Shown: positions 15,595 through 29,488, counted from the first letter of the stretch. The stretch is 64,000 nucleotides of DNA from Candidatus Zhuqueibacterota bacterium (GCA_049322915.1 JBMOPW010000013.1:32001-96000), one strand, 5' to 3'. Notes: generated by a model from the letters alone, not told the origin. Numbers and translations: made by a program.

Positions 15595-16854
15595 TCAAAT
15601 TTCATCTTCACAGACCACATCTTCATCCCATCGTTGCACAAGATAATTTCTATTCTGCTCAAACGCTTCGGCCTGACGTTCAATCACCTCTTCTGCCTGC
15701 GCATCGTTCAAGTCCCGGACCTCATTCACCAGCGCTGCGACCCGGGCAAAATAGAGCGGGGTCATTGAATTCACCAGGCGCTGCTTCTCCCCTTTGCAGT
15801 GATGAAATGCCGCTGCAAAGTCGTAGACAATTCCCGACCACTGTTCCGGCCCCATTGAAAATTCGGTCTCATCCGCCCGCGATAGCTTTTCAATGATCTG
15901 CCAGTTTTCACGGGCCAGAATTTTTTGCCACGTCCGACGATGGCTGAAAAATCCTGCTTTGAAATCCCCCACCAGTTTCGCGAGATTAACGGTGAACGGC
16001 CTGGGCGTGATGCGCTCGGAAGGCCCGAGCATCGGAACAGGAGCACTTTGCTGAGCCAGTTTCCAGACCGGCGCGTGTACTTCCATTCGGGACAGGAGGG
16101 TTGAAACAACCTGGTTGAGCATGGGTCCCAGCGATTCCGCCGGATCTTTCACATCGTGTATTTTCGCGCCCAGATTGACCTGAGCAACCCTGGCCCCGTG
16201 CGCCAACGCCGTGGTCGTCAGCCAGATATCAATGCCGAACCGGGCGACATCGGTCTCCCAGACATTCTCAGTCATATAGCGCTGAATCATCGGCCGGGAA
16301 AAAGCAAAATCGCCGCCAATAGGCTGTCGCACGCGATGGCCGAACAGCGCCCTGATGATGGGATACACAATGGTATTGGTGATGGTGCCATCGTATTTGA
16401 AGCGCGAGTAGTAAGGTGCGACAAAATCGTAGGCGTCGCTGAGGATGGCATCCGCCATGTATTTCACCCACTCCGGCGAGATGGAGCGGAGATCGGCGTC
16501 GAACAAGGCGCACACATTCGCCTTCATCAGATCTGCCGCTTCAAGAATGGATCGGACGGCCGTGCCTTTGCCGGGGATTCCCCTGTAAATGGAAACAATG
16601 CGATGCACCCCGGGATTGGGCAGCGCTTCCATGGCGACCTCCCTCGTATCGTCCACAGAACCACCATCGGCCAGAAAAACCGCGCCGGTGAGGTGCGGAA
16701 AATGCCGCGTCAATCCGGATTCCACGGCGTTCAGGACGTGCGCGATGGTCGATTCATTGTTGAAACAGGGCACTCCCACCAAAATATCCACCGCGCCAAT
16801 GCGCTCAATCTGCTGCCGAATCGATGGGCGCAAGGCTGTGCTGTAGTGTTTCAT
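15595..16854 (-). CDS. GT-A glycosyltransferase, glucosylglycerate/mannosylglycerate synthase-like
   Basis: GVPCFNNE, DGGSVDDT, PGKGTA, DADLRSI, KYDGTITN, RQPIGGDF, FGIDIWLT, KIHD, PLYFARVA. Confidence 0.75.
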   Translation of the reverse strand: MKHYSTALRPSIRQQIERIGAVDILVGVPCFNNESTIAHVLNAVESGLTRHFPHLTGAVFLADGGSVDDTREVAMEALPNPGVHRIVSIYRGIPGKGTAVRSILEAADLMKANVCALFDADLRSISPEWVKYMADAILSDAYDFVAPYYSRFKYDGTITNTIVYPIIRALFGHRVRQPIGGDFAFSRPMIQRYMTENVWETDVARFGIDIWLTTTALAHGARVAQVNLGAKIHDVKDPAESLGPMLNQVVSTLLSRMEVHAPVWKLAQQSAPVPMLGPSERITPRPFTVNLAKLVGDFKAGFFSHRRTWQKILARENWQIIEKLSRADETEFSMGPEQWSGIVYDFAAAFHHCKGEKQRLVNSMTPLYFARVAALVNEVRDLNDAQAEEVIERQAEAFEQNRNYLVQRWDEDVVCEDEI

Positions 16855-17137
16855 ACTCTCCCCAAAGTGATAGTGATGCGTCAAATAGGCTGGTGACTTT
16901 CGTTGAACGAACTCGGTAAATCGGGATCGGCTCTGATTCAGCTATTCGAAGCAATGCTTCCGCAATGTGACCGCAAAAAAAATTATCGGCGCTATCGAGT
17001 TGTTTGCAGAGGCGCTGCGATGCACGAAGACTTCACTGTCCTGATTCATCTGAAACGTCATTCGGACGATATCGGGCGACATTCTGATGAGCGGGTACGG
17101 CCCCTGCCATTGCGCGTTTCGGAAAAAGCCGAGCCCC

Positions 17138-18025
17138 TCATGCGCCGGCCGGTTTCTCCTGCCCGCCTGGCTGGCCGGTGTCCTCCTGTCCATAGACCTG
17201 CACCGGAAACGGTCGTGACATAGATCCGGCGTACAGCGACAGATGCCTGAATGCGATTTCGATGTTCTCTTTTTCAAAACGGTTTTTGATATCTTCGGCG
17301 ATGCTGTTTTTCAATTTCAGCCAGTTGGATTTCTCGGCCCAGACCCAGAGGATGAGTTCGTACGACGAGTCGCCGAACTCGTTGAAATATACAAATGGCT
17401 CCGGCTCTTTCAGACACAGCGCATTTTTATCGGCGACATCGAGGAGCGCCTGGCGCACGCGGCCGATGTTTTCGCGGTAGACAATGTTGAGATTGATATC
17501 CACGCGCCGGATGGGAAAATGCGTCATGTTGATGACATCCGTTTTGATGATGGTTTCGTTGGGAATGCGGATGTACTGGTTGTCGAACGTCCGCAATTTC
17601 ACCGAGAGAAAATCGATGGAGAGAACCACGCCGGTGTTGGTTCCCACGGTGATGATATCGTTCACTTCGAAAGGCTTTTCAGCCAGCAGAAAAAGACCGC
17701 TGATGATGTTGGAAACACTGGTTTGCGATGCAAAGCCGATGGCCAGCGTGGCGATGCCTGCTGCGCCCAACAGCGTTGTCAATTCGAATCCGACTTCGCG
17801 CAGGGCCGAGAACAGGATGAAGGCGATGCCGGTGTAGAGCACGAATTTGCCCAAAATCATGCTTTGCTGCGCTGAAAATTTTTTGACTGAATATTTCTTA
17901 ACTGTCCGGCTGAGAAAGAACACGATGGGGAGACCAATGATCAATACCAGCGCCAATCTCACGATGGATTCAATTTTCGCGGCTGTGAAAAACGTGGCGA
18001 AACTGAAGGTATTCAAAAAGTCCAT
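17138..18025 (-). CDS. mscS: Small-conductance mechanosensitive channel
   Basis: GAAGIATLAIGFASQ..SNIISG, PFEVND, IPNE, FGDSS. Confidence 0.92.
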   Translation of the reverse strand: MDFLNTFSFATFFTAAKIESIVRLALVLIIGLPIVFFLSRTVKKYSVKKFSAQQSMILGKFVLYTGIAFILFSALREVGFELTTLLGAAGIATLAIGFASQTSVSNIISGLFLLAEKPFEVNDIITVGTNTGVVLSIDFLSVKLRTFDNQYIRIPNETIIKTDVINMTHFPIRRVDINLNIVYRENIGRVRQALLDVADKNALCLKEPEPFVYFNEFGDSSYELILWVWAEKSNWLKLKNSIAEDIKNRFEKENIEIAFRHLSLYAGSMSRPFPVQVYGQEDTGQPGGQEKPAGA

Positions 18026-18035
18026 ACTGTCCTCC

Positions 18036-18851
18036 TTAGATTGTGGGGATTCCCAGGCCGGGCAAATCTTTGATCGAAGAAAACGTCTTGGCGAATAAAT
18101 TTTTCCGCTGAGGCATGCGCGGCAAGGCGATCAATGCCGCCGATTTCGCGTCATCGGGCGGAGAGCCGCTCGCTTCAACCTGGCTGACTTCCTGCTCTCC
18201 TGTGTAATAAATACGATTCAGATCCGACCAGAGCTGGCCTTCATGAATGAATAGCGAAAGGTTGGATACCCGAAAGCAGATTTTTTCGACGAGCAGATCT
18301 TCCTCGGAATTATTGATGAGTTCGAGCGGGCAGACTGCCAAATAGGGTCGGGTTGGATCCGGCTCTCCTTTTCGCGCGGCATTGGTCGCAATCCAATAGG
18401 ATACTTCGCCTTCATAAAAATCGCCGAACCAGGTCGTGGCCAGGCTGACGCTGGGAATTTCGGCCAGCGGTTTGGTCTTTTTCCGCTCGGACAAATTCAC
18501 CTGCAGCCACACCGGGATGCGGACGTAGATGGTGGCTTTGATATGGCGCGTCAGCCAGAATCGCGAATTAAATTTCAGGACAACGGAACGATCAGGCAAC
18601 ATGGGCGTCAGTTCAATTTTCCTCAGCCGCGCGTCCACAGCCCAACGCGTCCAGCGCACCGTGTCCGGGACTGCCGGAAGAGACGGCGTCTGTTCATCCG
18701 CGTGATGGAAACAGGCCAGTTGAATCTCCTTCTCACATTTCCGGCACCAGAGCTGCAATATCCCCAACCGCCAGGTCTGGATGGAATTCTCTTTCACTTC
18801 ATGCTGTCCCCACAGTGTCTGTGAGACATGATTATCACTGTGTCGTGCCAT
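18036..18851 (-). CDS. DUF432-like protein
   Basis: PMLPDRSVV, YVRIP, TWFG...GEVSYW, VCPLELIN; adjacent to mscS. Confidence 0.65.
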   Translation of the reverse strand: MARHSDNHVSQTLWGQHEVKENSIQTWRLGILQLWCRKCEKEIQLACFHHADEQTPSLPAVPDTVRWTRWAVDARLRKIELTPMLPDRSVVLKFNSRFWLTRHIKATIYVRIPVWLQVNLSERKKTKPLAEIPSVSLATTWFGDFYEGEVSYWIATNAARKGEPDPTRPYLAVCPLELINNSEEDLLVEKICFRVSNLSLFIHEGQLWSDLNRIYYTGEQEVSQVEASGSPPDDAKSAALIALPRMPQRKNLFAKTFSSIKDLPGLGIPTI

Positions 18852-18879
18852 GCGCTCTCCCTGCTTTATATTTTCCCGG

Positions 18880-19455
18880 TTAACCCTCCGGCGTAATTCT
18901 CCGGTAGATTTCCTTCGAATTCACCGGGACGAAACTCTTGCTCACAAAGCTAATGTTCTCGATGGTATAAAACGCCTGGGGATTATAATCTTTTATGATA
19001 TTGACAATCTTTTGAATATTCTTCCGTTTAATAATGGTGAAAATAATTTTCACTCTGCCGGTCACCCCTTCCGCATCCACATTGGTGACGGTGTAGCCAT
19101 CGGATTTCAATCGCTCCACCAATTCATCGGCTTCCATCCGCGTGATGACTCGGATCATGACCATTCCCATGGCAATTTTATTTTCGATGAAAATGCCCAC
19201 GAAATTGCCGAACGAGAAGCCCAGGGCAAAGGCGATGAAATTGGCCGGGTTATCCAGATTTTTCATCACCTGGGTGATGGCCAGCAGCCAAATATTCACT
19301 TCAATGAAACCAAGCAGCGGCGCCAGCAGCTTCATATTCTTGGCAAGAAATATGATGCGAATCGTGCTGATTGTGACATTCAAAATCATCGCCAGGAAAA
19401 TCAACAGCGGCGTGACGAACCAAATATCCAACATTGAACTCATTGACATCTCCAC
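18880..19455 (-). CDS. DUF2179/UPF0316 membrane protein, paralog 1
   Basis: GFIEVNIWL, ALGFSFGNFVG, GYTVT..AEG, NPQAFY. Confidence 0.85.
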   Translation of the reverse strand: MEMSMSSMLDIWFVTPLLIFLAMILNVTISTIRIIFLAKNMKLLAPLLGFIEVNIWLLAITQVMKNLDNPANFIAFALGFSFGNFVGIFIENKIAMGMVMIRVITRMEADELVERLKSDGYTVTNVDAEGVTGRVKIIFTIIKRKNIQKIVNIIKDYNPQAFYTIENISFVSKSFVPVNSKEIYRRITPEG

Positions 19456-19643: not shown

Positions 19644-20708
19644 TCAGCGAAGGCTGAATCCCAGACCGGGAGCGTCATGGGGATAGAGCGTACCATCTTT
19701 GAGAATCACAGCGCCGGCAGCCGGATCGTCCACGAGATCAAAATGGCCATCCAGGTCAGCGCAGACCACATTGGGCCGGGCCAGCGCAAAGTGCAAGCCG
19801 GCAGCAATGGCCAGCGCGGACTCATCCATGCAGCCGACCATGCTGGTCATCCCGGCCGCGCGCGCCACACTATCGACGTGCTGCGCCTCGGAAATTCCGC
19901 CCACTTTCATGAGTTTGATATTGATCATCGCCGCCCGCCTCCGGCACGCCAGGTCAAGCGCATCGCGCACCGTCATCAGACTCTCATCCGCCATGATCGG
20001 GACCGGTGAGGCTTCAGTGACCTGGCCCAGCAGCGCTGGATTTTCCCGGGCCGTGGGTTGTTCAATGAACTCCAAACCCGTTGACTGAGTTGCCGTTGCA
20101 AACAGGACGGCCTGTTCCACCGAAAAGCCCTGATTGGCATCGAACCGAAGTCCCACCTGCCGGCCAACGACCTCGCGCACCCGAAGGACGCGCTCAATAT
20201 CTCGGTCCACGTCAATGCCGCCTTTTATCTTCAGGGACGTGAATCCACGGGCCACAAACTCCCCGGCTTTACTGACAGTCTCCGGCAGGGGCAAAATGCC
20301 GATGGTGATGCTCGTCGGAATGCAGTCACGGAATCCGCCCAACATTTTCCAGACCGGCGCGCCGCAGGCTTTGCCCAGGAGATCGAACAGCGCCATATCC
20401 ATTGCCGCCAATGCCGACGGATGGCGCTCCATCGATGGCCTCAGCCGCCCGATGAGACTGGCGAACCGAAGCGGGTCCGCGCCGATGATCTGCGGCTTGA
20501 CCACGTCGTCCATCACCTGCATGACTGTCGCTTCGGTCTCTCCGGTGACCTCCAAATCCGGAGCGGCGCAGCCAAATCCACAGAGGCCGGTATCGGTTTC
20601 AATTTTCAGAAAGACATTCACCGTCGAATCGATCGTTTCGTAGGCAATGGTGTAGGGTTCTGCCAGACGCATAGCCACCGGCCATGCTTCCACTCGTTGT
20701 ATTTTCAT
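19644..20708 (-). CDS. Dipeptide epimerase (L-Ala-D/L-Glu epimerase / DgcA-like), enolase superfamily
   Basis: KIK, DANQG, EQP, ADES, NIKLMKVGG, GCMDES, DLDG. Confidence 0.88.
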   Translation of the reverse strand: MKIQRVEAWPVAMRLAEPYTIAYETIDSTVNVFLKIETDTGLCGFGCAAPDLEVTGETEATVMQVMDDVVKPQIIGADPLRFASLIGRLRPSMERHPSALAAMDMALFDLLGKACGAPVWKMLGGFRDCIPTSITIGILPLPETVSKAGEFVARGFTSLKIKGGIDVDRDIERVLRVREVVGRQVGLRFDANQGFSVEQAVLFATATQSTGLEFIEQPTARENPALLGQVTEASPVPIMADESLMTVRDALDLACRRRAAMINIKLMKVGGISEAQHVDSVARAAGMTSMVGCMDESALAIAAGLHFALARPNVVCADLDGHFDLVDDPAAGAVILKDGTLYPHDAPGLGFSLR

Positions 20709-20748
20709 CGCCCTGCCTCAAATGAAATGTTTATTTGGCCATCCTTTG

Positions 20749-20819
20749 ATTGTCGGGGATACTCATTCCGGATGGTGCGCCTCGGCGACATTCGCGCCGG
20801 AAACATCTCCGGCGCGATC
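20749..20819 (-). repeat. Degenerate family A repeat, copy 4 (middle hairpin missing)
   Basis: GGGATACTCATTCCGGATGGTGCGCCT and CGCGCCGGAAACATCTCCGGCGC match 60446-60473 and 60504-60526. Confidence 0.65.
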
Positions 20820-20865
20820 AGGCCTCATCTTTCCGGGTTCATGCTCCCTGCAGACAGGTCCCGGC

Positions 20866-21945
20866 CTACTTTTTCAAATACGTCTCGAGCGCGGCAATCA
20901 CCTTCCGGGGGCCATCCACAAGCACATCGCTGGCTACGCAGCCGGCGGCTTTTTCGATCTCCGCATAAATGGGAGCAAGGTCGTCTGGTTGCAACGACTC
21001 ATGATTGATGGTGATAGCGACGACCGGTTTCTCGGAGATAATTTCGATGGCCTTTATCTGTCTGTCCAGCGGATGAATGCGGTAGCCGGGAAAACCGTCG
21101 TAATCCACACGGGCTGGCGCGTGCTGCAATACCACGACATCAGGGCGGGCGGCCGCCAGAATTTCGTAGCCGCCGGGGTAAGCCGGATTCATCAGGCTGC
21201 CCTGGCCTTCGATGACAATGACGTCCGGTTTTTTATCGTTCCACGCCGACCACACGGCAAATTCGATTTCGCCGGAGACAAAATCATTGATGAGCGAATC
21301 CAGAATGAGCGAGTATTGCGCGCCCTGCATCCAGGCGGTCTGTCCAGTCCCGACCATTTCCGCAGTGTAGCCGGCGGCCCGAAATCCTTCCACCAGAATC
21401 CACGCTGTCGTCCGTTTGCCAATGGCGGAATCGGTGCCCAGCACAGCGATTTTCAACGATGTGACCTGTTCGATCCGGCCATCGAAGAAATGCAATTTGT
21501 CCCGCGTCGGTGTTTTTCGAACATCGCGGAGTGTGATTCGATGCTTAACCGCCAATCCGGAAATTTCAGGATCATCCGACAGAAAATCGTGGAGACCGCA
21601 ATCGACATTCAGTCCCAGTTCAATCGCTCGTTTCACATCCTGACGCGCCCGTGGATTGAGCCTGCCGCCATCCGGGGCAAGGCCAATGACCAGATGGGTG
21701 GCGCGGCGCTGCTGACGGGCGGCGTGTTCAACGGCCTCGGCTACATCGCCAATGATGGGTATATTTTTCGGCGCGCCGTCCAGCACCAGGCCAGCGTCTT
21801 TGCCGGCATAGGTGGAATCGACCACTGATAGCACCGAATAGCGGGCCGTCTTTCGAACCAGCCCGTGCGCCGTTTTGCCATTGGGCGTATTAAACGCATC
21901 CTGACAATAGACAATGGCATTTCCTTCCGGAAAATTTTTCATCAT
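20866..21945 (-). CDS. DUF1611 P-loop protein (DgcN-like)
   Basis: GKTAHGL, GLHDFL, GTDSAIGKRTT, TGQT, DFVSG, EGQGSL. Confidence 0.88.
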   Translation of the reverse strand: MMKNFPEGNAIVYCQDAFNTPNGKTAHGLVRKTARYSVLSVVDSTYAGKDAGLVLDGAPKNIPIIGDVAEAVEHAARQQRRATHLVIGLAPDGGRLNPRARQDVKRAIELGLNVDCGLHDFLSDDPEISGLAVKHRITLRDVRKTPTRDKLHFFDGRIEQVTSLKIAVLGTDSAIGKRTTAWILVEGFRAAGYTAEMVGTGQTAWMQGAQYSLILDSLINDFVSGEIEFAVWSAWNDKKPDVIVIEGQGSLMNPAYPGGYEILAAARPDVVVLQHAPARVDYDGFPGYRIHPLDRQIKAIEIISEKPVVAITINHESLQPDDLAPIYAEIEKAAGCVASDVLVDGPRKVIAALETYLKK

Positions 21946-23066: not shown

Positions 23067-24209
23067 TTACATCATCAGTGATTCATCAAACTCGAAGCAG
23101 GGTGTTTTCTCTTCACTTTCAACAATCTGCGGCACTAATTTTTCAGGTTTGGGATGTTTGCCATTCCTATTTTTCGTCTGCGCGTATCGATAAATTTTCC
23201 CTTTGTAATTCCGCAACACCACTTCTTCATCCGTGATTCTGACGACATATTCGGGCAGCAAGGGAATCTTGCCACCGCCGCCGGGGGAGTCGATCACAAA
23301 GTGCGGCACAGCCAAGCCAGACGTCCAGCCCCGAATGGCTTTGATGATCTCCAGCCCTTTCTCGACGCGGGTTCGGAAATGTTCGGTCCCATAAACATAA
23401 TCGGCCTGGTAAATATAATAAGGACGAACGCGCGCCAACAGCAGCTTTTGCATCAATTTTTTCATGACTTCCGGGTCATCGTTTACACCTTTCAGCAGCA
23501 CGGTCTGGCAGCCAAGCGGAATGCCGGCATCGACCAATTTCCCCAGAGCCTTGACGGCAATCGGCGTCAATTCATCCGGATGATTGAAGTGAACGTTCAT
23601 GTAAAGAGGGTGATATTTCTTGAGCATGTTGGTTAATTTTGTGGTAATCCTTTGTGGGAGGAAACAAGGGACACGTGTCCCAATGCGGATAATTTGGACA
23701 TGTGGGATACGCCTGAGCTTGTGAAGGATATACCGTAACCAATCATCGCTCAATAATAATGGGTCGCCTCCGGACATAATGACGTCTCGAATTTCAGGAT
23801 GCTGCTCAATATACTCGATCCCTTCATCAATAAACTTCGGGCTAATTTTGCTCGGATCGCCTACTTTTCGCTTACGGGTACAGAAACGACAGAACGATGC
23901 ACAATCATGGGAAACTAAAAATAAACAACGATCGGGATAACGGTGAACAATGCTTTTCACCGGGGAGTCTCTATCCTCGGACAATGGGTCAAATGACAGT
24001 CCATCATTGTCCAGCTCTTTCAAATCAGGAACAACCTGTTTATAAATCGGATCGCCTTTCGCTTTAATCAGCGACAGGTAATACGGATTAATTTTTATAT
24101 CAAATTCATGCTGTATCTTTTCTACTTCGGCTAAAGGTATATCGAATCTCTCTGAAATCTCTTTAGCGCTGGTCAAACTTTTTTGCAGAATCTTCTGCCA
24201 GGTTTCCAT
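23067..24209 (-). CDS. kamA: KamA-family radical SAM protein, lysine 2,3-aminomutase-like
   Basis: HRYPDR, CASFCRFCTRKR, SGGDPL, HFNHP, PYYIYQAD, FVIDSPGGGGKIP. Confidence 0.88.
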   Translation of the reverse strand: METWQKILQKSLTSAKEISERFDIPLAEVEKIQHEFDIKINPYYLSLIKAKGDPIYKQVVPDLKELDNDGLSFDPLSEDRDSPVKSIVHRYPDRCLFLVSHDCASFCRFCTRKRKVGDPSKISPKFIDEGIEYIEQHPEIRDVIMSGGDPLLLSDDWLRYILHKLRRIPHVQIIRIGTRVPCFLPQRITTKLTNMLKKYHPLYMNVHFNHPDELTPIAVKALGKLVDAGIPLGCQTVLLKGVNDDPEVMKKLMQKLLLARVRPYYIYQADYVYGTEHFRTRVEKGLEIIKAIRGWTSGLAVPHFVIDSPGGGGKIPLLPEYVVRITDEEVVLRNYKGKIYRYAQTKNRNGKHPKPEKLVPQIVESEEKTPCFEFDESLMM

Positions 24210-24297
24210 GGTAAAAACATACCTCCTACGTGTTTGTTATGGTTGTTAATTTGAACAGATGCGACAGGTCCTCATCCAATGGAGCGTGCCACATGTG

Positions 24298-24774
24298 TTA
24301 TAAACGTTTCACAAAAATCAAGCGATCATCGCCGATTCGATAAAAGTCCTTAATGCGGGCTTCCACGACATATCGGTTTCGAAGGTAAAAATCCTGTGTT
24401 GGTTTGTATTTCGGTTGAGATGACGTTTCAATAATGATCATACGGCCTTTGAGGCGTACAACTTCTTGCTCCGTGAAAATCAATAATTTTTTTCCAACCC
24501 CTTGATGCTGCACCACTGGTGAAACCGCGATCCAGTATAAATCAAATGTGCCTTCAGTGGCAGGTGTGGGGCCGTAACATACGTATCCAACAACCTCCTT
24601 CCGTGCATCTTCTGCAACGTAAATGATATAATCCTTTTGATTTTTGTTATTTAAAAAAATATCAACCAATTCCATCGCAACGGCGACTTCTTCTTCAGTG
24701 AACATGTCCGTGTGAACGAGAATCTGATGCACCGCCTCTCTATCCTGAGACGCCATTTTTCTAATCGTTACCAT
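24298..24774 (-). CDS. GNAT family N-acetyltransferase
   Basis: DLYWIAV, QHQGVGKKL, IETSS, FY..DD. Confidence 0.88.
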   Translation of the reverse strand: MVTIRKMASQDREAVHQILVHTDMFTEEEVAVAMELVDIFLNNKNQKDYIIYVAEDARKEVVGYVCYGPTPATEGTFDLYWIAVSPVVQHQGVGKKLLIFTEQEVVRLKGRMIIIETSSQPKYKPTQDFYLRNRYVVEARIKDFYRIGDDRLIFVKRL

Positions 24775-25807
24775 TCCATTTCCTTTTCAATGCTTCGTGA
24801 ATCAACAGATCGACAAACGATTCGTAACTAATTCCAGCAGCAGTCAATGCTTTGACATAACCCGCATCCGGCGAGATGTCCGGATTGGGATTGTATTCCA
24901 GCACAAAAATATTTTCATCATCATCGACGCGGGTATCGACGCGACCATAATCCCGGCCATTGATCGTCTGATACACTTGCAGCGCTACATCTTCGAGTCG
25001 TGCCCGGAGACTGTCGCTTATCTGAGCCGGACAAATCGCTGGCGTCTTTTGATAGAGCGGATGATCGGGCAGCCATTTGGCTTCGTAACTTGTGATATGA
25101 GGCGTCTCCTCACCCAGCGCCGCAAAACTGATCTCAGAAATGGCGATGACTCGCGCCGGACCATTCCCCAATACGCTGACATTGAATTCCCGGCCCTGAA
25201 TGTACTGCTCCACCAGAATGGGCTGGTTGTATTTTTTCAACAACGCTGTGACTCGCTTTTTCAACCCATTCAAATCATGAATAATCGCATCGCCATGCGT
25301 AATGCCCAGACTGGCATCCTCCCGTGACGGCTTTGCAATCAGCGGATACGAAAGTATTGTATCGCGGGGTGCTTCGGAATAGACCTGAAACTTTGGGGTT
25401 GGTATGTTCCTGGCTTCGAACAACTGCTTTGTGAGCACCTTGTCCTGCGCCAGCCCTAATGTCAACGGAGAATTTCCGGTATAGGGGATTTCTAACAATT
25501 CCCATACACCTGCAATAAACATCTCGAAGCGAGCTTTGCCCTGGTAACCTTCGCATAAATTAAAAATCAGGTCTGGGGAAACCTGATTTATCTCCTGGAA
25601 AATCTGGTCAAGGCTTTTAACCGGAAAGGAAATAGGTACGTGGCCGGATTCCAGGACAACTCGCTGAACAATTTCTGCTTCGTCCTTCACCGCAGCTTCA
25701 GAAATAAAATCCAAATCCTGATCCGCCTTTTGAATCGGCTCATTATAGGCAATAAGAATATTCAATTTCTTCGAATCAGACTTCATGTTATTCATCGGAC
25801 GAGTCAT
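24761..25807 (-). CDS. D-Ala-D-Ala-ligase-like ATP-grasp protein B
   Basis: FNLCE, PYTG, KPSREDASLGI, VEQYIQGREF, YEAKW, RVD, LEYNPNPD. Confidence 0.85.
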   Translation of the reverse strand: MTRPMNNMKSDSKKLNILIAYNEPIQKADQDLDFISEAAVKDEAEIVQRVVLESGHVPISFPVKSLDQIFQEINQVSPDLIFNLCEGYQGKARFEMFIAGVWELLEIPYTGNSPLTLGLAQDKVLTKQLFEARNIPTPKFQVYSEAPRDTILSYPLIAKPSREDASLGITHGDAIIHDLNGLKKRVTALLKKYNQPILVEQYIQGREFNVSVLGNGPARVIAISEISFAALGEETPHITSYEAKWLPDHPLYQKTPAICPAQISDSLRARLEDVALQVYQTINGRDYGRVDTRVDDDENIFVLEYNPNPDISPDAGYVKALTAAGISYESFVDLLIHEALKRKWNGND

Positions 25808-25842
25808 CGCAAAAATTAATTTTTGCTCCTCATATTTAAAAA

Positions 25843-26880
25843 TTAAATACCATACCTTTTTCTGGCAAACTCAATGACCTTATTGATCATTGCGGTGTAA
25901 CTATAGCCTTTGGTTCGGGCCGCCTTGGGGAAACAGGAATTATCTTCCGGATTAGGCAAAATCCCCGGCAGCGGATTCAGCTCCAGGATGTGCGCCACAC
26001 CCTGATCATCCATACGGATGTCAATTCGGCACCAGTCCCTGATATGCATCACGCGGTAGGTATCCCGCACGACATCTTCGATATTTCGCTGCTGTAAATA
26101 GGTCAATGGCGCCGGGCATTTAAATATTTCAAGCGGCTTATCCGGCGTGTCCCAGATCCATTTTGCTTCATACGAATAAATCGGCCGAGCGCCTTCAGGC
26201 AGGTCGTCATAACTGATCGCGACGATGGGCAGCACGTCGACCTCTTTTCCATTGCCCCAGATGGCCACCGTATATTCATCTTTTTCTAAAAATTTCTCGA
26301 TCATCACCGGTTCATTGTATCTGGCGAGGATCTCTTCAATCTTCTTCCTCGCCTGCTTCGGGTCTTCCACTACCGAGTCATTGAAAATTCCTTTGCTGCT
26401 TCCCTCGGCAATGGGCTTGACAATCGCTGGAAAATAAAAATCATTCAACTCAATTTTTTGGAGTGGATGCAGCACCCGAAAAGGCGGTGTGGGAATCGAA
26501 TGGTAATTGAGTATTTCTTTGGTTCGGGCCTTATTCAGACAAATAGCCAGCGTCAAAGGATCCGATCCGGTGTACGGCAGTCCCAATCGCTCGCAAACCA
26601 GAGGGATGTACGACTCGCGAAAGTCGCCAAATAAACCTTCGGCTATATTGAACACCAGCTCCGGCCGAAGATTTTCCAGGGTGGCTGGCGCTGTATCATC
26701 CGCTTCAACGCTGAAAACTTCGTGCCCACCGCTTCGTATCGCATCCAACACCGAATTGATCGTGTCTACGCTATCACCCTCTGCGAAAAAATCAGGCGGA
26801 ATATCCGTGGTCTTTTGATAATGCTTTTCATATTCTTTGAGTAATCCAGTTTTGCTGCTGTACGCAACTGCTATTTTCAT
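25843..26880 (-). CDS. D-Ala-D-Ala-ligase-like ATP-grasp protein A
   Basis: FNIAEG, PYTGS, KPIAEGSSKGI, YSYEAKW, RIDIR, LELNPLPG. Confidence 0.85.
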   Translation of the reverse strand: MKIAVAYSSKTGLLKEYEKHYQKTTDIPPDFFAEGDSVDTINSVLDAIRSGGHEVFSVEADDTAPATLENLRPELVFNIAEGLFGDFRESYIPLVCERLGLPYTGSDPLTLAICLNKARTKEILNYHSIPTPPFRVLHPLQKIELNDFYFPAIVKPIAEGSSKGIFNDSVVEDPKQARKKIEEILARYNEPVMIEKFLEKDEYTVAIWGNGKEVDVLPIVAISYDDLPEGARPIYSYEAKWIWDTPDKPLEIFKCPAPLTYLQQRNIEDVVRDTYRVMHIRDWCRIDIRMDDQGVAHILELNPLPGILPNPEDNSCFPKAARTKGYSYTAMINKVIEFARKRYGI

Positions 26881-27019
26881 AGTCACAATCTCAAATTCAA
26901 ACCATCGTGAGCTAATATAAAAAAATCTCTAACGCATAGAGATGTCCCTGGAAACATGTACACCGGATTCTGATTTCAAAACAATATTCACTGTTTATAA
27001 AAAATTGAACATGAATTTG

Positions 27020-27034
27020 GCAATAATTATGCCA
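27020..27034 (-). promoter_or_regulatory. Sigma54 (-24/-12) promoter for the ligase-ligase-GNAT-kamA operon
   Basis: TGGCAT-AATTA-TTGC on the minus strand with exact GG-N10-GC spacing, about 140 nt upstream of ligase A. Confidence 0.75.
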
Positions 27035-27171: not shown

Positions 27172-28572
27172 TTATTTAAAATCTTCTTTCAGGATTCCGT
27201 AGCGATGCATCAGTTTATTCAATTGCCTCTCTCCAATCCCGGCTTCTTTGGCGGTGAGATTGATTTTTCCATGATGCCGGGTGAGGAGGTCGATTATATA
27301 TTGTTTCTCCACCCGGTCGATTTCGCGCTGCCGAACCTGTGTCAAAGTCAATGTGCTTTCAGCAGCCATCACTTTGCTCTTCTTCTTGCCATTTTTGAAT
27401 AGCTCAGCCGGGAAGCTTTTCGGCATCAGAATAGAGGACGACTCCAAAATATAGGCGCGCTCGATTAAATTTTCCAGTTCCCGGATATTGCCGGGCCAGG
27501 CGTAACATTGAAACGCCTCCAGCACATCGGGATGAACGTCGTTGATGTGCTTGGCATTGGCTTTATTGAGTCGCTTCAAAAAATTTTCGACCAGGATGGG
27601 AATATCTTCAATCCGCTGCTCAAGCCGTGGCAGTTCGATGGGGAAAACATTGAGCCGATAAAACAGATCGTTTCTGAAGGTGCTCAATTCGACCATTTTC
27701 TGCAAATCGGAATTTGTGGCCGCCAGAATTCGGACGTCGGCTTTGATGACATTCTCTCCGCCCACTCGCTGAAATGTCCTATCCTGCAACACCTGCAGGA
27801 GCGCAATTTGCATCGAGGAGGAGATGGTGCCGATCTCATCCAGAAAAATGGTCCCGCCATGGGCTATTTCAAACTTGCCAAGCTTGCGTCGGATCGCTCC
27901 GGTGAAAGCGCCTTTCTCGTGGCCAAACAGCTCGCTCTCCAGCAATGACTCGATAATGCCGCCGCAATGAACGCTGATGTATTGCTTCTCACTGCGCTTG
28001 CTGTGCTGATGCAACAATCCGGCAATGACGCTTTTGCCTGTTCCTGTTTCGCCTGTGATCAATACTGTGCTTTCGGTCGGAGCGACCGCCCGAATTTTTG
28101 AAAATACTTCTTTCATCAGCGGGCTGTTGGAACGAAGCACGGATAAATACTCGCTGCGCCAGAACCGATCGCGCAGATAATTGAGCTCGGAATTCATGCG
28201 CGAGTATTCCTGAAGGCTATCCACGATGTATTTGATCTCATCTGGATTGAGGGGGTACATCAGGTAATTGCTGGCGCCGGCCTTCACGGCATTGACCGTG
28301 TCGCGAACCATTTGCGGCGTTGAGAGCACGATAATATCCACATCCGAGGTGCCTCGCCAGAATGGCAAAAACTGGACTTTGTAGTCCACGTCGCTCTTCG
28401 AGTTCTTCAATATCTCGATATCAATGAAAAGAAACTCATATCGCTTTTTAGAAAATAATTCTTCGCCGGCCTCAAGTGTCTGCGCGTAATCGATTTTATA
28501 TCCGGATTCAAAACATTTCTGGATAGTCTCCACTGCTTCCTGATTTGTTGTGGTGACGAGTATACTTTTCAT
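27172..28572 (-). CDS. Sigma54-dependent NtrC-type activator with atypical receiver domain
   Basis: GETGTGKS, ELFGHEKGAFTGA, FLDEIG, WPGNIREL, C-terminal Fis-type HTH. Confidence 0.93.
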   Translation of the reverse strand: MKSILVTTTNQEAVETIQKCFESGYKIDYAQTLEAGEELFSKKRYEFLFIDIEILKNSKSDVDYKVQFLPFWRGTSDVDIIVLSTPQMVRDTVNAVKAGASNYLMYPLNPDEIKYIVDSLQEYSRMNSELNYLRDRFWRSEYLSVLRSNSPLMKEVFSKIRAVAPTESTVLITGETGTGKSVIAGLLHQHSKRSEKQYISVHCGGIIESLLESELFGHEKGAFTGAIRRKLGKFEIAHGGTIFLDEIGTISSSMQIALLQVLQDRTFQRVGGENVIKADVRILAATNSDLQKMVELSTFRNDLFYRLNVFPIELPRLEQRIEDIPILVENFLKRLNKANAKHINDVHPDVLEAFQCYAWPGNIRELENLIERAYILESSSILMPKSFPAELFKNGKKKSKVMAAESTLTLTQVRQREIDRVEKQYIIDLLTRHHGKINLTAKEAGIGERQLNKLMHRYGILKEDFK

Positions 28573-28573
28573 C

Positions 28574-29488
28574 TCAGCCTTTGATTTTGTGTTGGACATA
28601 ATCAACAATATGGTTCACAATATGATTAACCACGGGTTCCGGCACACCATCCCGGTGGCTCGATTTCAATCGCATGTCGCAGATTTCGTTCACATAATCA
28701 ATCACAATAAATTTCCCATATTGATCGACTGCGATTTCAGTGGAAAAAAAGTTCAACTTGATTATCCTGGATATTTGCTCAACAATATGGAAGAGACTCT
28801 CCAACTGATACATTCTTACGGACTCCTGGCTCAGGACTTCGTAGATGTGGGTTGAATCATCCCACCAACAGCACTCGATATATCCGCAGCAATAGAACAC
28901 CCGAAACCAGAATCGTTTCTCATCCTTTTCGACCGGGTTTACCTTTTCCTGCAGCAGATATTTATCGGTCTCGTAGACCTGTCTGGCAATGAGAACGTCG
29001 TGCAGCGTCTCAGCGCCATTGACCACACCGATACCGCCGCCGGTGGTATTTGCTGGTTTAATGATGAACGGCCGCCCCAGATTTGCCAGATCTGCGATGG
29101 ATAATAAGACGTTTTTCGTTTTATTGAATGGCGGAATGATGATGGTGTGCGGCGTGACCAATCCATGTGCGATAAATTCCAAATGCATGGTCGCCTTATC
29201 AGACGCCCACTTCAATTGTTCCCATGAATCCAATACCGGCACGTGGTGATTCAGCATCAGTGTGTGGAGCTCCAGGAATTCCGTGGACGAATCAGAACCC
29301 CGATCATAAAAGAAGTGAAACTGCACCTCTCCCTTGCGAACTCGCTCAATGGTCTCCTGAAGATTAAACGCCTCCACCAGAAAGGTTGTCATGTTATATT
29401 TTTCATGGGCTGCGCGTTCAATCATGTGAATAAATTCTTTGTCATATTCCCAGTCGGTTGCCACACAAAAATCATAACACTGCGTCAT
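28574..29488 (-). CDS. ATP-grasp (RimK/GshB-like) protein of unknown function
   Basis: DKATMH, PFIIKPANTTGGGIGVV, YLLQEKV, FRVFY, VIDYVN. Confidence 0.7.
   Translation of the reverse strand: MTQCYDFCVATDWEYDKEFIHMIERAAHEKYNMTTFLVEAFNLQETIERVRKGEVQFHFFYDRGSDSSTEFLELHTLMLNHHVPVLDSWEQLKWASDKATMHLEFIAHGLVTPHTIIIPPFNKTKNVLLSIADLANLGRPFIIKPANTTGGGIGVVNGAETLHDVLIARQVYETDKYLLQEKVNPVEKDEKRFWFRVFYCCGYIECCWWDDSTHIYEVLSQESVRMYQLESLFHIVEQISRIIKLNFFSTEIAVDQYGKFIVIDYVNEICDMRLKSSHRDGVPEPVVNHIVNHIVDYVQHKIKG

Follow-up and report, generated by a model that had tools for sequence, protein, structure and literature searches.

A four-gene cassette in the genome of a Candidatus Zhuqueibacterota bacterium would, in our reading, make a small, ribosome-free, N-acetylated beta-lysine amide (a di- or tri-amide) in the cytoplasm, a prediction from sequence that we regard as about evenly poised between right and wrong. 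The cassette lies in a stretch of 64,000 nucleotides (GCA_049322915.1, JBMOPW010000013.1:32001-96000), analyzed at its full length and hereafter called the window; the source genome measures 6.25 Mb and is 96% complete. All four genes are on the minus strand and encode LigA, an ATP-grasp ligase of the D-alanine-D-alanine ligase (Ddl) fold that falls outside the Ddl clade (347 aa, 25843-26886, its start likely being the ATG at 26880); LigB, a second Ddl-fold ATP-grasp ligase, with an acidic acceptor site (348 aa, 24761-25807); a GNAT acetyltransferase in the same family as PDB 2R7H (158 aa, 24298-24774, PF00583/PF13508); and KamA, an aminomutase of the family that uses radical S-adenosylmethionine and pyridoxal phosphate (PLP) (380 aa, 23067-24209). 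The first-pass annotation had described four tightly packed, co-directional genes, with LigB and the GNAT overlapping and no mur/dcw genes nearby. All four open reading frames (ORFs) are indeed present, separated by 35 nt (LigA/LigB), -14 nt (LigB/GNAT, an overlap) and 88 nt (GNAT/KamA), and the mur/dcw families had no match among the ~50 longer window ORFs scanned (one scan with a cut-off of E 1e-12). No efp or epmA was found among the window ORFs scanned.

The cassette is common. A scan of GTDB with LigA gave at least 533 confirmed LigA-like relatives, the best 80 of which were analyzed for synteny. The order LigA-LigB-GNAT-KamA, whose conservation the first-pass annotation had made a test of its proposal, was complete in 72 of these 80 loci; among the remaining eight, six run into a contig edge no more than 1.7 kb from LigA, and in two KamA is absent although there is room for it. 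By record title, the lineages concerned are Calditrichia, KSB1, Marinimicrobia, Lentisphaerae, Aminicenantes, Ignavibacteria/Bacteroidota and Deltaproteobacteria (including Desulfobacterales). Among 121 genomes of the window's phylum, a close LigA was found in 26, all of which also carry a close KamA, and the 27th close KamA adjoins a LigB-like gene; this co-occurrence is a non-independent test, because the genomes are kin.

We also sampled 201 genomes from a second phylum, that of a Desulfobacterales locus, where the GNAT was present in 62 genomes, and inspected 40 GNAT loci. All four functions were encoded at 26 of the 40, mostly in the order KamA-LigA-LigB-GNAT, and the rest comprised one locus with KamA and a LigB-GNAT fusion, two with the trio behind an arginine decarboxylase, one with LigB and the GNAT, and ten with the GNAT alone. 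The idea that these last ten are unrelated to the cassette was rejected, as LigA and LigB are encoded elsewhere in five of the five genomes checked. The core of the cassette is LigA-LigB-GNAT, with KamA as a usual but not obligatory partner, and the window copy is a typical member.

LigA and LigB are 33% identical to each other and belong to the same Pfam class, Dala_Dala_lig_C (PF07478). Neither reached any Ddl/Van cut-off in NCBIfam, scoring 172.9 (LigA) and 147.4 bits (LigB) against 243 for NF002378, and 139.3 and 127.4 bits against 245.65 for TIGR01205. Their AlphaFold models (predicted local distance difference test of 92 each) found Ddl structures as top fold matches, with template-modeling (TM) scores of 0.74-0.76, and the LigB model superposed on DdlB with a Z of 34 and a root-mean-square deviation of 2.2 over 295 residues. 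In a quick IQ-TREE phylogeny of 33 rows, including six Ddl/Van references and run with no bootstrap, LigA, LigB and Ddl/Van each formed one side of a branch, with Shimodaira-Hasegawa-like approximate likelihood-ratio (SH-aLRT) supports of 93, 96 and 99, respectively. The LigA/LigB split is old and maintained across both gene orders, because each forms its own branch in this tree. The only further Ddl-like gene in the genome is a canonical Ddl with all canonical motifs, on contig C2. The view that the cassette ligases are not Ddl enzymes is thus upheld by their position outside the Ddl/Van clade, their scores below all cut-offs and the canonical Ddl elsewhere. Tree position and synteny, two of the refuting conditions set in the first-pass annotation, both turned out in favor of its proposal. 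The motif YEAKW, noted earlier as standing in for YEAKY, was seen in both window ligases, though it is characteristic of the window's subgroup only, type II LigA proteins carrying YSYxNKE.

Active-site residues were mapped by sequence alignment in E. coli DdlB numbering over 44 LigA and 48 LigB sequences, with the familiar roles of the E. coli residues (Ser150 and Tyr216 apart) as background. The equivalents of Lys97, Lys144, Glu180, Arg255, Asp257, Glu270 and Asn272, which concern ATP binding and the acyl-phosphate, are invariant in both ligases, and LigA and LigB are therefore probably active. The GGxSxE signature, said at first to be absent, is so only in part: the N-terminal GGxS is gone from both ligases, but the Glu is retained behind an insertion, where the SxE Glu of the six Ddl/Van references is matched by E36 in LigA and E37 in LigB (the Glu15 equivalent, in 44/44 LigA and 43/48 LigB). 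His63, which in Ddl lines the D-Ala1 pocket, is replaced by Glu in all 92 aligned sequences (44/44 LigA, 48/48 LigB; E83 in LigA, E86 in LigB), and Tyr216 is replaced by Trp in both ligases (W243 in LigA). The acceptor site of LigA keeps Ser150 (S163) and Ser281 (S317) in 44/44 sequences, as well as Gly276. In LigB, Gly149 and Gly276 have become Asp (D164 and D310) in 48/48 sequences, Ser150 is Ala or Gly in 48/48 and Ser281 is Ala in 44/48; Asp-Ala thus takes the place of Gly149-Ser150, and Ala-Gly that of Ser281-Leu282. Ser150 and Tyr216 are described as markers of D-Ala-D-Ala-only ligases in passages of PMC7691350. From these residues, we infer that the donor in both ligases would be a basic or beta-amino acid, with an amino acid as the acceptor of LigA and a cationic amine as that of LigB.

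Searched as a profile against solved structures, the GNAT matched PDB 2R7H at E 2.3e-48, with the next match at 3.3e-7, and therefore a solved structure of one cassette component exists. We take 2R7H to be a structural-genomics protein from Desulfovibrio G20; its depositors titled it ‘putative D-alanine N-acetyltransferase of GNAT family’, a function name that is only putative. No paper on the activity or operon of this protein was found in our literature search, and the text and one supplement of a Desulfovibrio G20 fitness study (PMC4001038) contain nothing on the cassette genes, though its larger tables may differ. As already proposed, the GNAT differs from AblB and is shorter: an alignment to the annotated 282-aa AblB reached an hhalign probability of 16.5% over 32 columns, and no AblB model matched.

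The LigB and GNAT genes overlap or almost touch at most loci, and the two are fused at seven of the 40 second-phylum GNAT loci. A survey of the 150 best LigB representatives found five fused to the cassette GNAT, 11 fused to a RimJ/SpeG-type GNAT and 22 tandem two-ligase proteins; in the loci examined, the fusion partner of the GNAT was LigB and never KamA. LigB appears to need an acetylation partner, gained more than once, because it is fused with two GNAT classes and contacts or overlaps the GNAT gene at most loci.

KamA passed the TIGR00238 cut-off (290.3 vs 199.2 bits) and carries the CxxxCxxC motif (C103/C107/C110) and the PLP lysine (K314). Its best specific model was ablA (TIGR03820, 466.8 bits), ahead of the glutamate (413.7), arginine (340.6) and EpmB (228.4) models; the last score is below the EpmB cut-off of 369.3 bits, and the position of KamA in a tree built by a quick method is distant from EpmB. 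The C-terminal zinc region of clostridial lysine 2,3-aminomutase is lacking. The two acidic residues singled out in the first-pass annotation, in YQAD and VIDSP, do align to Asp293 and Asp330 of the Clostridium enzyme (PDB 2A5H), and R112/D270/D307/K314, the equivalents of its R134/D293/D330/K337, are kept in 68/68 sequences. We take Asp293 and Asp330 to be the ligands of the side-chain amine in lysine 2,3-aminomutase, and Lys337 to be its PLP lysine. KamA is the only member of its family in the genome. The cassette-linked KamAs are spread over several separate KamA clades, all with the D293/D330 equivalents, a pattern that fits a need for the product and not for one particular protein. KamA is most likely a lysine 2,3-aminomutase, an enzyme that interconverts lysine and beta-lysine (passages of PMC3958899).

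In the proposed pathway, KamA would convert L-lysine to beta-lysine, a strongly indicated step. Both ligases would then form an acyl-phosphate from the carboxyl group of a basic or beta-amino acid, whose extra amine would be held by the Glu at the His63 position; to this donor LigA, with its Ser150/Ser281 site kept, would attach an amino acid whose carboxylate is free. More tentatively, LigB, with two extra Asp on its acceptor side and no such serines, might couple its own donor to a cationic amine. The epsilon-amine of a beta-lysine unit is the likeliest candidate, though some lineages might use a diamine. A remaining amine would be acetylated by the GNAT, which is tied to LigB, and the charge would thereby fall. 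Where an acetylpolyamine-amidohydrolase-like partner is present, it would strip the acetyl group and allow turnover. The product would probably serve as a stress solute or a nitrogen-rich reserve; the analogy with AblAB and the few ion-transport neighbors make it plausible that it acts as an osmolyte.

Accessory genes were counted over 180 ligase-bearing loci, which are not independent. A GNAT-deacetylase fusion was found near 20 of the 180, with acetylpolyamine amidohydrolases as its top solved matches (E 3.5e-71). Such fusions of a GNAT with an acetylpolyamine amidohydrolase, which place opposing activities in one chain, occur in L008 (9340-11082), L240 and L243, and two of these three are also joined to the cassette GNAT (~750 aa). 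PdaD, a pyruvoyl arginine decarboxylase, adjoins the ligases at eight of the 180 loci, often with an agmatinase and a deoxyhypusine-synthase-like gene. A third, RimK-like ATP-grasp gene lies near 19 of the 180, upstream or downstream, in both gene orders and also in a PdaD locus. In the window, this gene (28574-29488, minus strand) has weak RimK/LysX matches and belongs to an unnamed family; no Pfam or PDB match was obtained, its atlas neighbors are putative ATP-grasp proteins, and it overlaps the start of a gene for an NtrC/AtoC-type sigma54 activator.

This activator gene (27172-28608, minus strand), recognized by domain profiles as having receiver, AAA+ and helix-turn-helix domains, is immediately upstream of the cassette, and a homolog is found near 26 of the 180 loci, mostly in close kin. 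A candidate sigma54-like promoter site (27019-27034, minus strand), ~140 nt 5' of LigA and coinciding with the end coordinate (27034) of the region marked in the first-pass annotation, matches 9 of 11 consensus positions, a score equaled by ~2% of shuffled 350-nt upstream regions, and rpoN is present in the genome. Conserved sigma54 control was nonetheless rejected as a general feature, the site being found in one of 16 relatives with an upstream activator and in five of 62 others (close kin). Near-perfect sigma54 sites (10-11/11) were seen 230-240 nt upstream of LigA in L028, L030, L032, L033 and L035, which belong to one related group, with no adjacent activator gene. Sigma70 matches were at chance level (15 vs 10.0 ± 3.8).

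Several observations weigh against an acetylated beta-lysine amide. KamA stays below the ablA cut-off (525.4 bits), and arginine may be an alternative substrate. KamA is also dispensable in places: G064, a 100% complete genome, has the LigA-LigB-GNAT trio and no KamA-family match, and among five loci from one family of the window's class, the trio has no KamA after it in four and reaches a contig edge in the fifth. LigB and the GNAT occur without LigA at several loci. The residue readings depend on sequence alignment and on background knowledge of E. coli DdlB. The window genome lacks the fused deacetylase, its sole match being a 37% domain match, and neighbors of osmotic type are sparse (a sporadic Na/Ca exchanger or Trk; MscS ~5 kb downstream). 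The accessory genes are as suggestive of diamine chemistry of a polyamine-like kind as they are of a salt solute.

These last genes bring forward an explanation that we consider unlikely yet serious, in which the trio really works on diamines whose amines are separated by four carbons (putrescine, agmatine or homospermidine); beta-lysine, which has the same spacing, would then be an interchangeable source or an acyl donor onto a polyamine, the part played by glutathione in glutathionylspermidine synthetase. PdaD beside the ligases, with agmatinase and the deoxyhypusine-synthase-like gene at several loci, is in keeping with it, as are the likeness of the accessory deacetylase to acetylpolyamine amidohydrolase, the acidic acceptor site of LigB, the fusion of LigB to SpeG/RimJ-class GNATs and the KamA-less trio of G064. 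However, the window copy has no flanking polyamine genes, and the notion that PdaD replaces KamA is unsupported: KamA is encoded elsewhere in five of the five PdaD-linked genomes checked, and PdaD is no simple KamA substitute, because three of these KamAs cluster (support 98) with KamAs from operons. It is more improbable still that LigA and LigB together act as a heterodimeric or alternating synthetase of a beta-lysine oligo- or polyamide (a store like cyanophycin, or a polycation) whose chain would be ended or masked by acetylation. Ddl-fold enzymes are dimers, 22 of the 150 best LigB representatives are tandem fusions of two ligases, and a sister ligase clade keeps gamma-glutamyltranspeptidase, a seven-transmembrane (7TM) protein, and a porin or CapA beside it, like poly-gamma-glutamate capsule systems; but neither an exporter nor a dedicated hydrolase belongs to the cassette, both ligases retain the amino-terminal Glu anchoring a free amino-acid donor, LigB and the GNAT are found in the absence of LigA, and LigA and LigB are kilobases apart in some genomes.

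We hold it very unlikely that the ligases load beta-lysine onto a macromolecule, be it a protein, a lipid or a wall polymer, the GNAT and deacetylase forming an AcuA/AcuC-like acetylation switch on the enzymes or the target. The RimK-like third ATP-grasp near some of the loci and the existence of GNAT-deacetylase fusions would fit such a scheme, which is opposed by the closed small-molecule site of the Ddl fold, by the resemblance of the deacetylase to small-molecule polyamine hydrolases and by the lack of a conserved target gene beside the cassette. Scarcely credible, and already disfavored, is the view that these are variant cell-wall dipeptide ligases, or that the system is plain AblAB, making N-epsilon-acetyl-beta-lysine, with bystander ligases. 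The Ddl fold and the title of 2R7H speak for this view, and KamA with AblB is a known osmolyte route according to passages of PMC3543383 and PMC11201294; yet the ligases lie outside the Ddl/Van clade and below its cut-offs, with His63 replaced by Glu and Tyr216 by Trp, and a canonical Ddl is encoded elsewhere in the genome. The GNAT, moreover, is distinct from AblB, and its fusions at the loci examined are with LigB and not with KamA.

A bolder proposal, unlikely as a whole, sees LigA and LigB as founders of a widespread Ddl sister group (His63 to Glu) whose members would form amides on diamines with four-carbon spacing, either beta-lysine or polyamines derived from agmatine, and would have a dedicated cycle for writing and erasing acetyl groups. 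On rhizobial symbiosis replicons, a related branch would export a beta- or diamino-acid polyamide. If true, this would amount to an unrecognized class of polyamine-peptide metabolites in anaerobes.

The acetylated beta-lysine amide pathway can be set beside several known systems. AblA/AblB, in methanogens and in Pelobacter carbinolicus (Pcar_1401/1402; passages of PMC3543383), likewise has a lysine-2,3-aminomutase-type enzyme adjoining an acetyltransferase, likely with beta-lysine and acetyl-CoA as inputs. The cassette differs in that its GNAT (158 vs 282 aa) has no detectable family kinship with AblB and comes after the ligases, not KamA; that its KamA, below the ablA cut-off, falls in another clade than the AblA reference; and that it includes two ligases. 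With Ddl and VanA, the cassette ligases share the fold, the residues for ATP and the acyl-phosphate, and the counterpart of the amino-terminal Glu15, but they form separate clades, carry the His63 and Tyr216 replacements and, in LigB, an altered acceptor site, and have no dcw context. MysD, glutathionylspermidine synthetase and carnosine synthase belong to ATP-grasp small-amide pathways with Ddl-like or amine-accepting ligases. In these, too, non-standard amino acids or amines are ligated by an ATP-grasp enzyme without ribosome or non-ribosomal peptide synthetase; however, the families and partners are others, and none of these enzymes is known to occur together with KamA, a second Ddl-fold paralog and the cassette GNAT.

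More distant ligases adjoin other makers of beta- or diamino acids, namely SbnAB, an EctB-like transaminase, PanD and KamA. The wider ligase group keeps company with such enzymes, because its plasmid copies adjoin KamA, PanD, EctB-like or SbnAB genes. Loci of rhizobial symbiosis regions (the ATP-grasp and CapA genes of pNGR234a; the KamA, gamma-glutamyltranspeptidase, 7TM and ligase genes of Bradyrhizobium) encode Ddl-fold ligases 33-40% identical to LigB; likewise uncharacterized, they differ from the cassette by falling in a separate clade, by their membrane- or export-type partners and by having no cassette-family GNAT in the regions inspected. LigB-like ATP-grasp genes on rhizobial plasmids (L266, L269, L270 and L271, including pNGR234a) lie near CapA, PanD or EctB-like genes, and on a Thioflavicoccus plasmid (L268) a LigB-like gene shares an operon with a diaminobutyrate transaminase and SbnAB, faced by KamA. 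In L089, L090, L096 (G001, G075) and L267 (Bradyrhizobium plasmid NZ_CP088281.1), a Ddl-fold ligase is accompanied by a 7TM protein, a gamma-glutamyltranspeptidase and a divergent KamA-like enzyme without the Asp293/Asp330 motifs, and L089, L090 and L096 (G001, G075) also carry an alginate-export-type porin. These loci resemble poly-gamma-glutamate capsule systems and may encode an exported polyamide pathway that is apparently uncharacterized.

Other ligase fusions in the group join a methyltransferase (~660 aa; L082, L086, L100, L101), a peptidase S58 (L084) or an M20-like domain, the last followed by gamma-glutamyltranspeptidase and N-formylglutamate amidohydrolase (L085, L087, L088, L098). 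In passages of PMC8305402, a symbiotic-plasmid ‘D-alanine-D-alanine ligase’ is given as NifA-dependent, and in passages of PMC8632152 the Bradyrhizobium KamA and gamma-glutamyltranspeptidase genes are given as differentially expressed; these may be the genes found here.

Around the window cassette, a DUF1611 (DgcN-like) gene and an L-Ala-D/L-Glu epimerase-like gene of the enolase family (19644-21945, minus strand) resemble a D-glutamate acetylation/racemization pair. This pair was rejected as part of the cassette, as it follows KamA after a 1.1-kb gap and, besides the window, adjoins the cassette in one of the 80 relatives (L006). Further on (15595-19455, minus strand), DUF5698/DUF2179, DUF432, MscS and a glucosyl-3-phosphoglycerate-synthase-like family 2 glycosyltransferase are encoded consecutively, a possible osmotic-stress neighborhood; a similar glycosyltransferase also comes after the cassette in L004. 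At the other side, a large exopolysaccharide-type cluster (35084-63911, minus strand) encodes an asparagine-synthase-like amidotransferase, glycosyltransferases, a flippase, OmpA, an FG-GAP repeat protein and two-component genes.

A full-text literature search, with most subscription papers outside its reach, found no published account of the cassette. The work of Iyer et al. (2009) on ATP-grasp amidoligases may have noted such neighborhoods. ATP-grasp synthesis of small amides is already known; what would be new is the enzyme set of the cassette and its product, a novelty conditional on the absence of an earlier prediction of such neighborhoods. Source databases routinely name these ligases ‘D-alanine-D-alanine ligase’; these labels therefore hide an uncharacterized pathway and inflate cell-wall annotations. 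The cassette could yield ligases taking beta- or diamino acids for biocatalysis. The identity of the product would assign a function to the orphan structural-genomics GNAT of the 2R7H family and would extend the known metabolites of uncultured anaerobes by a new one of the beta-amino-acid kind.

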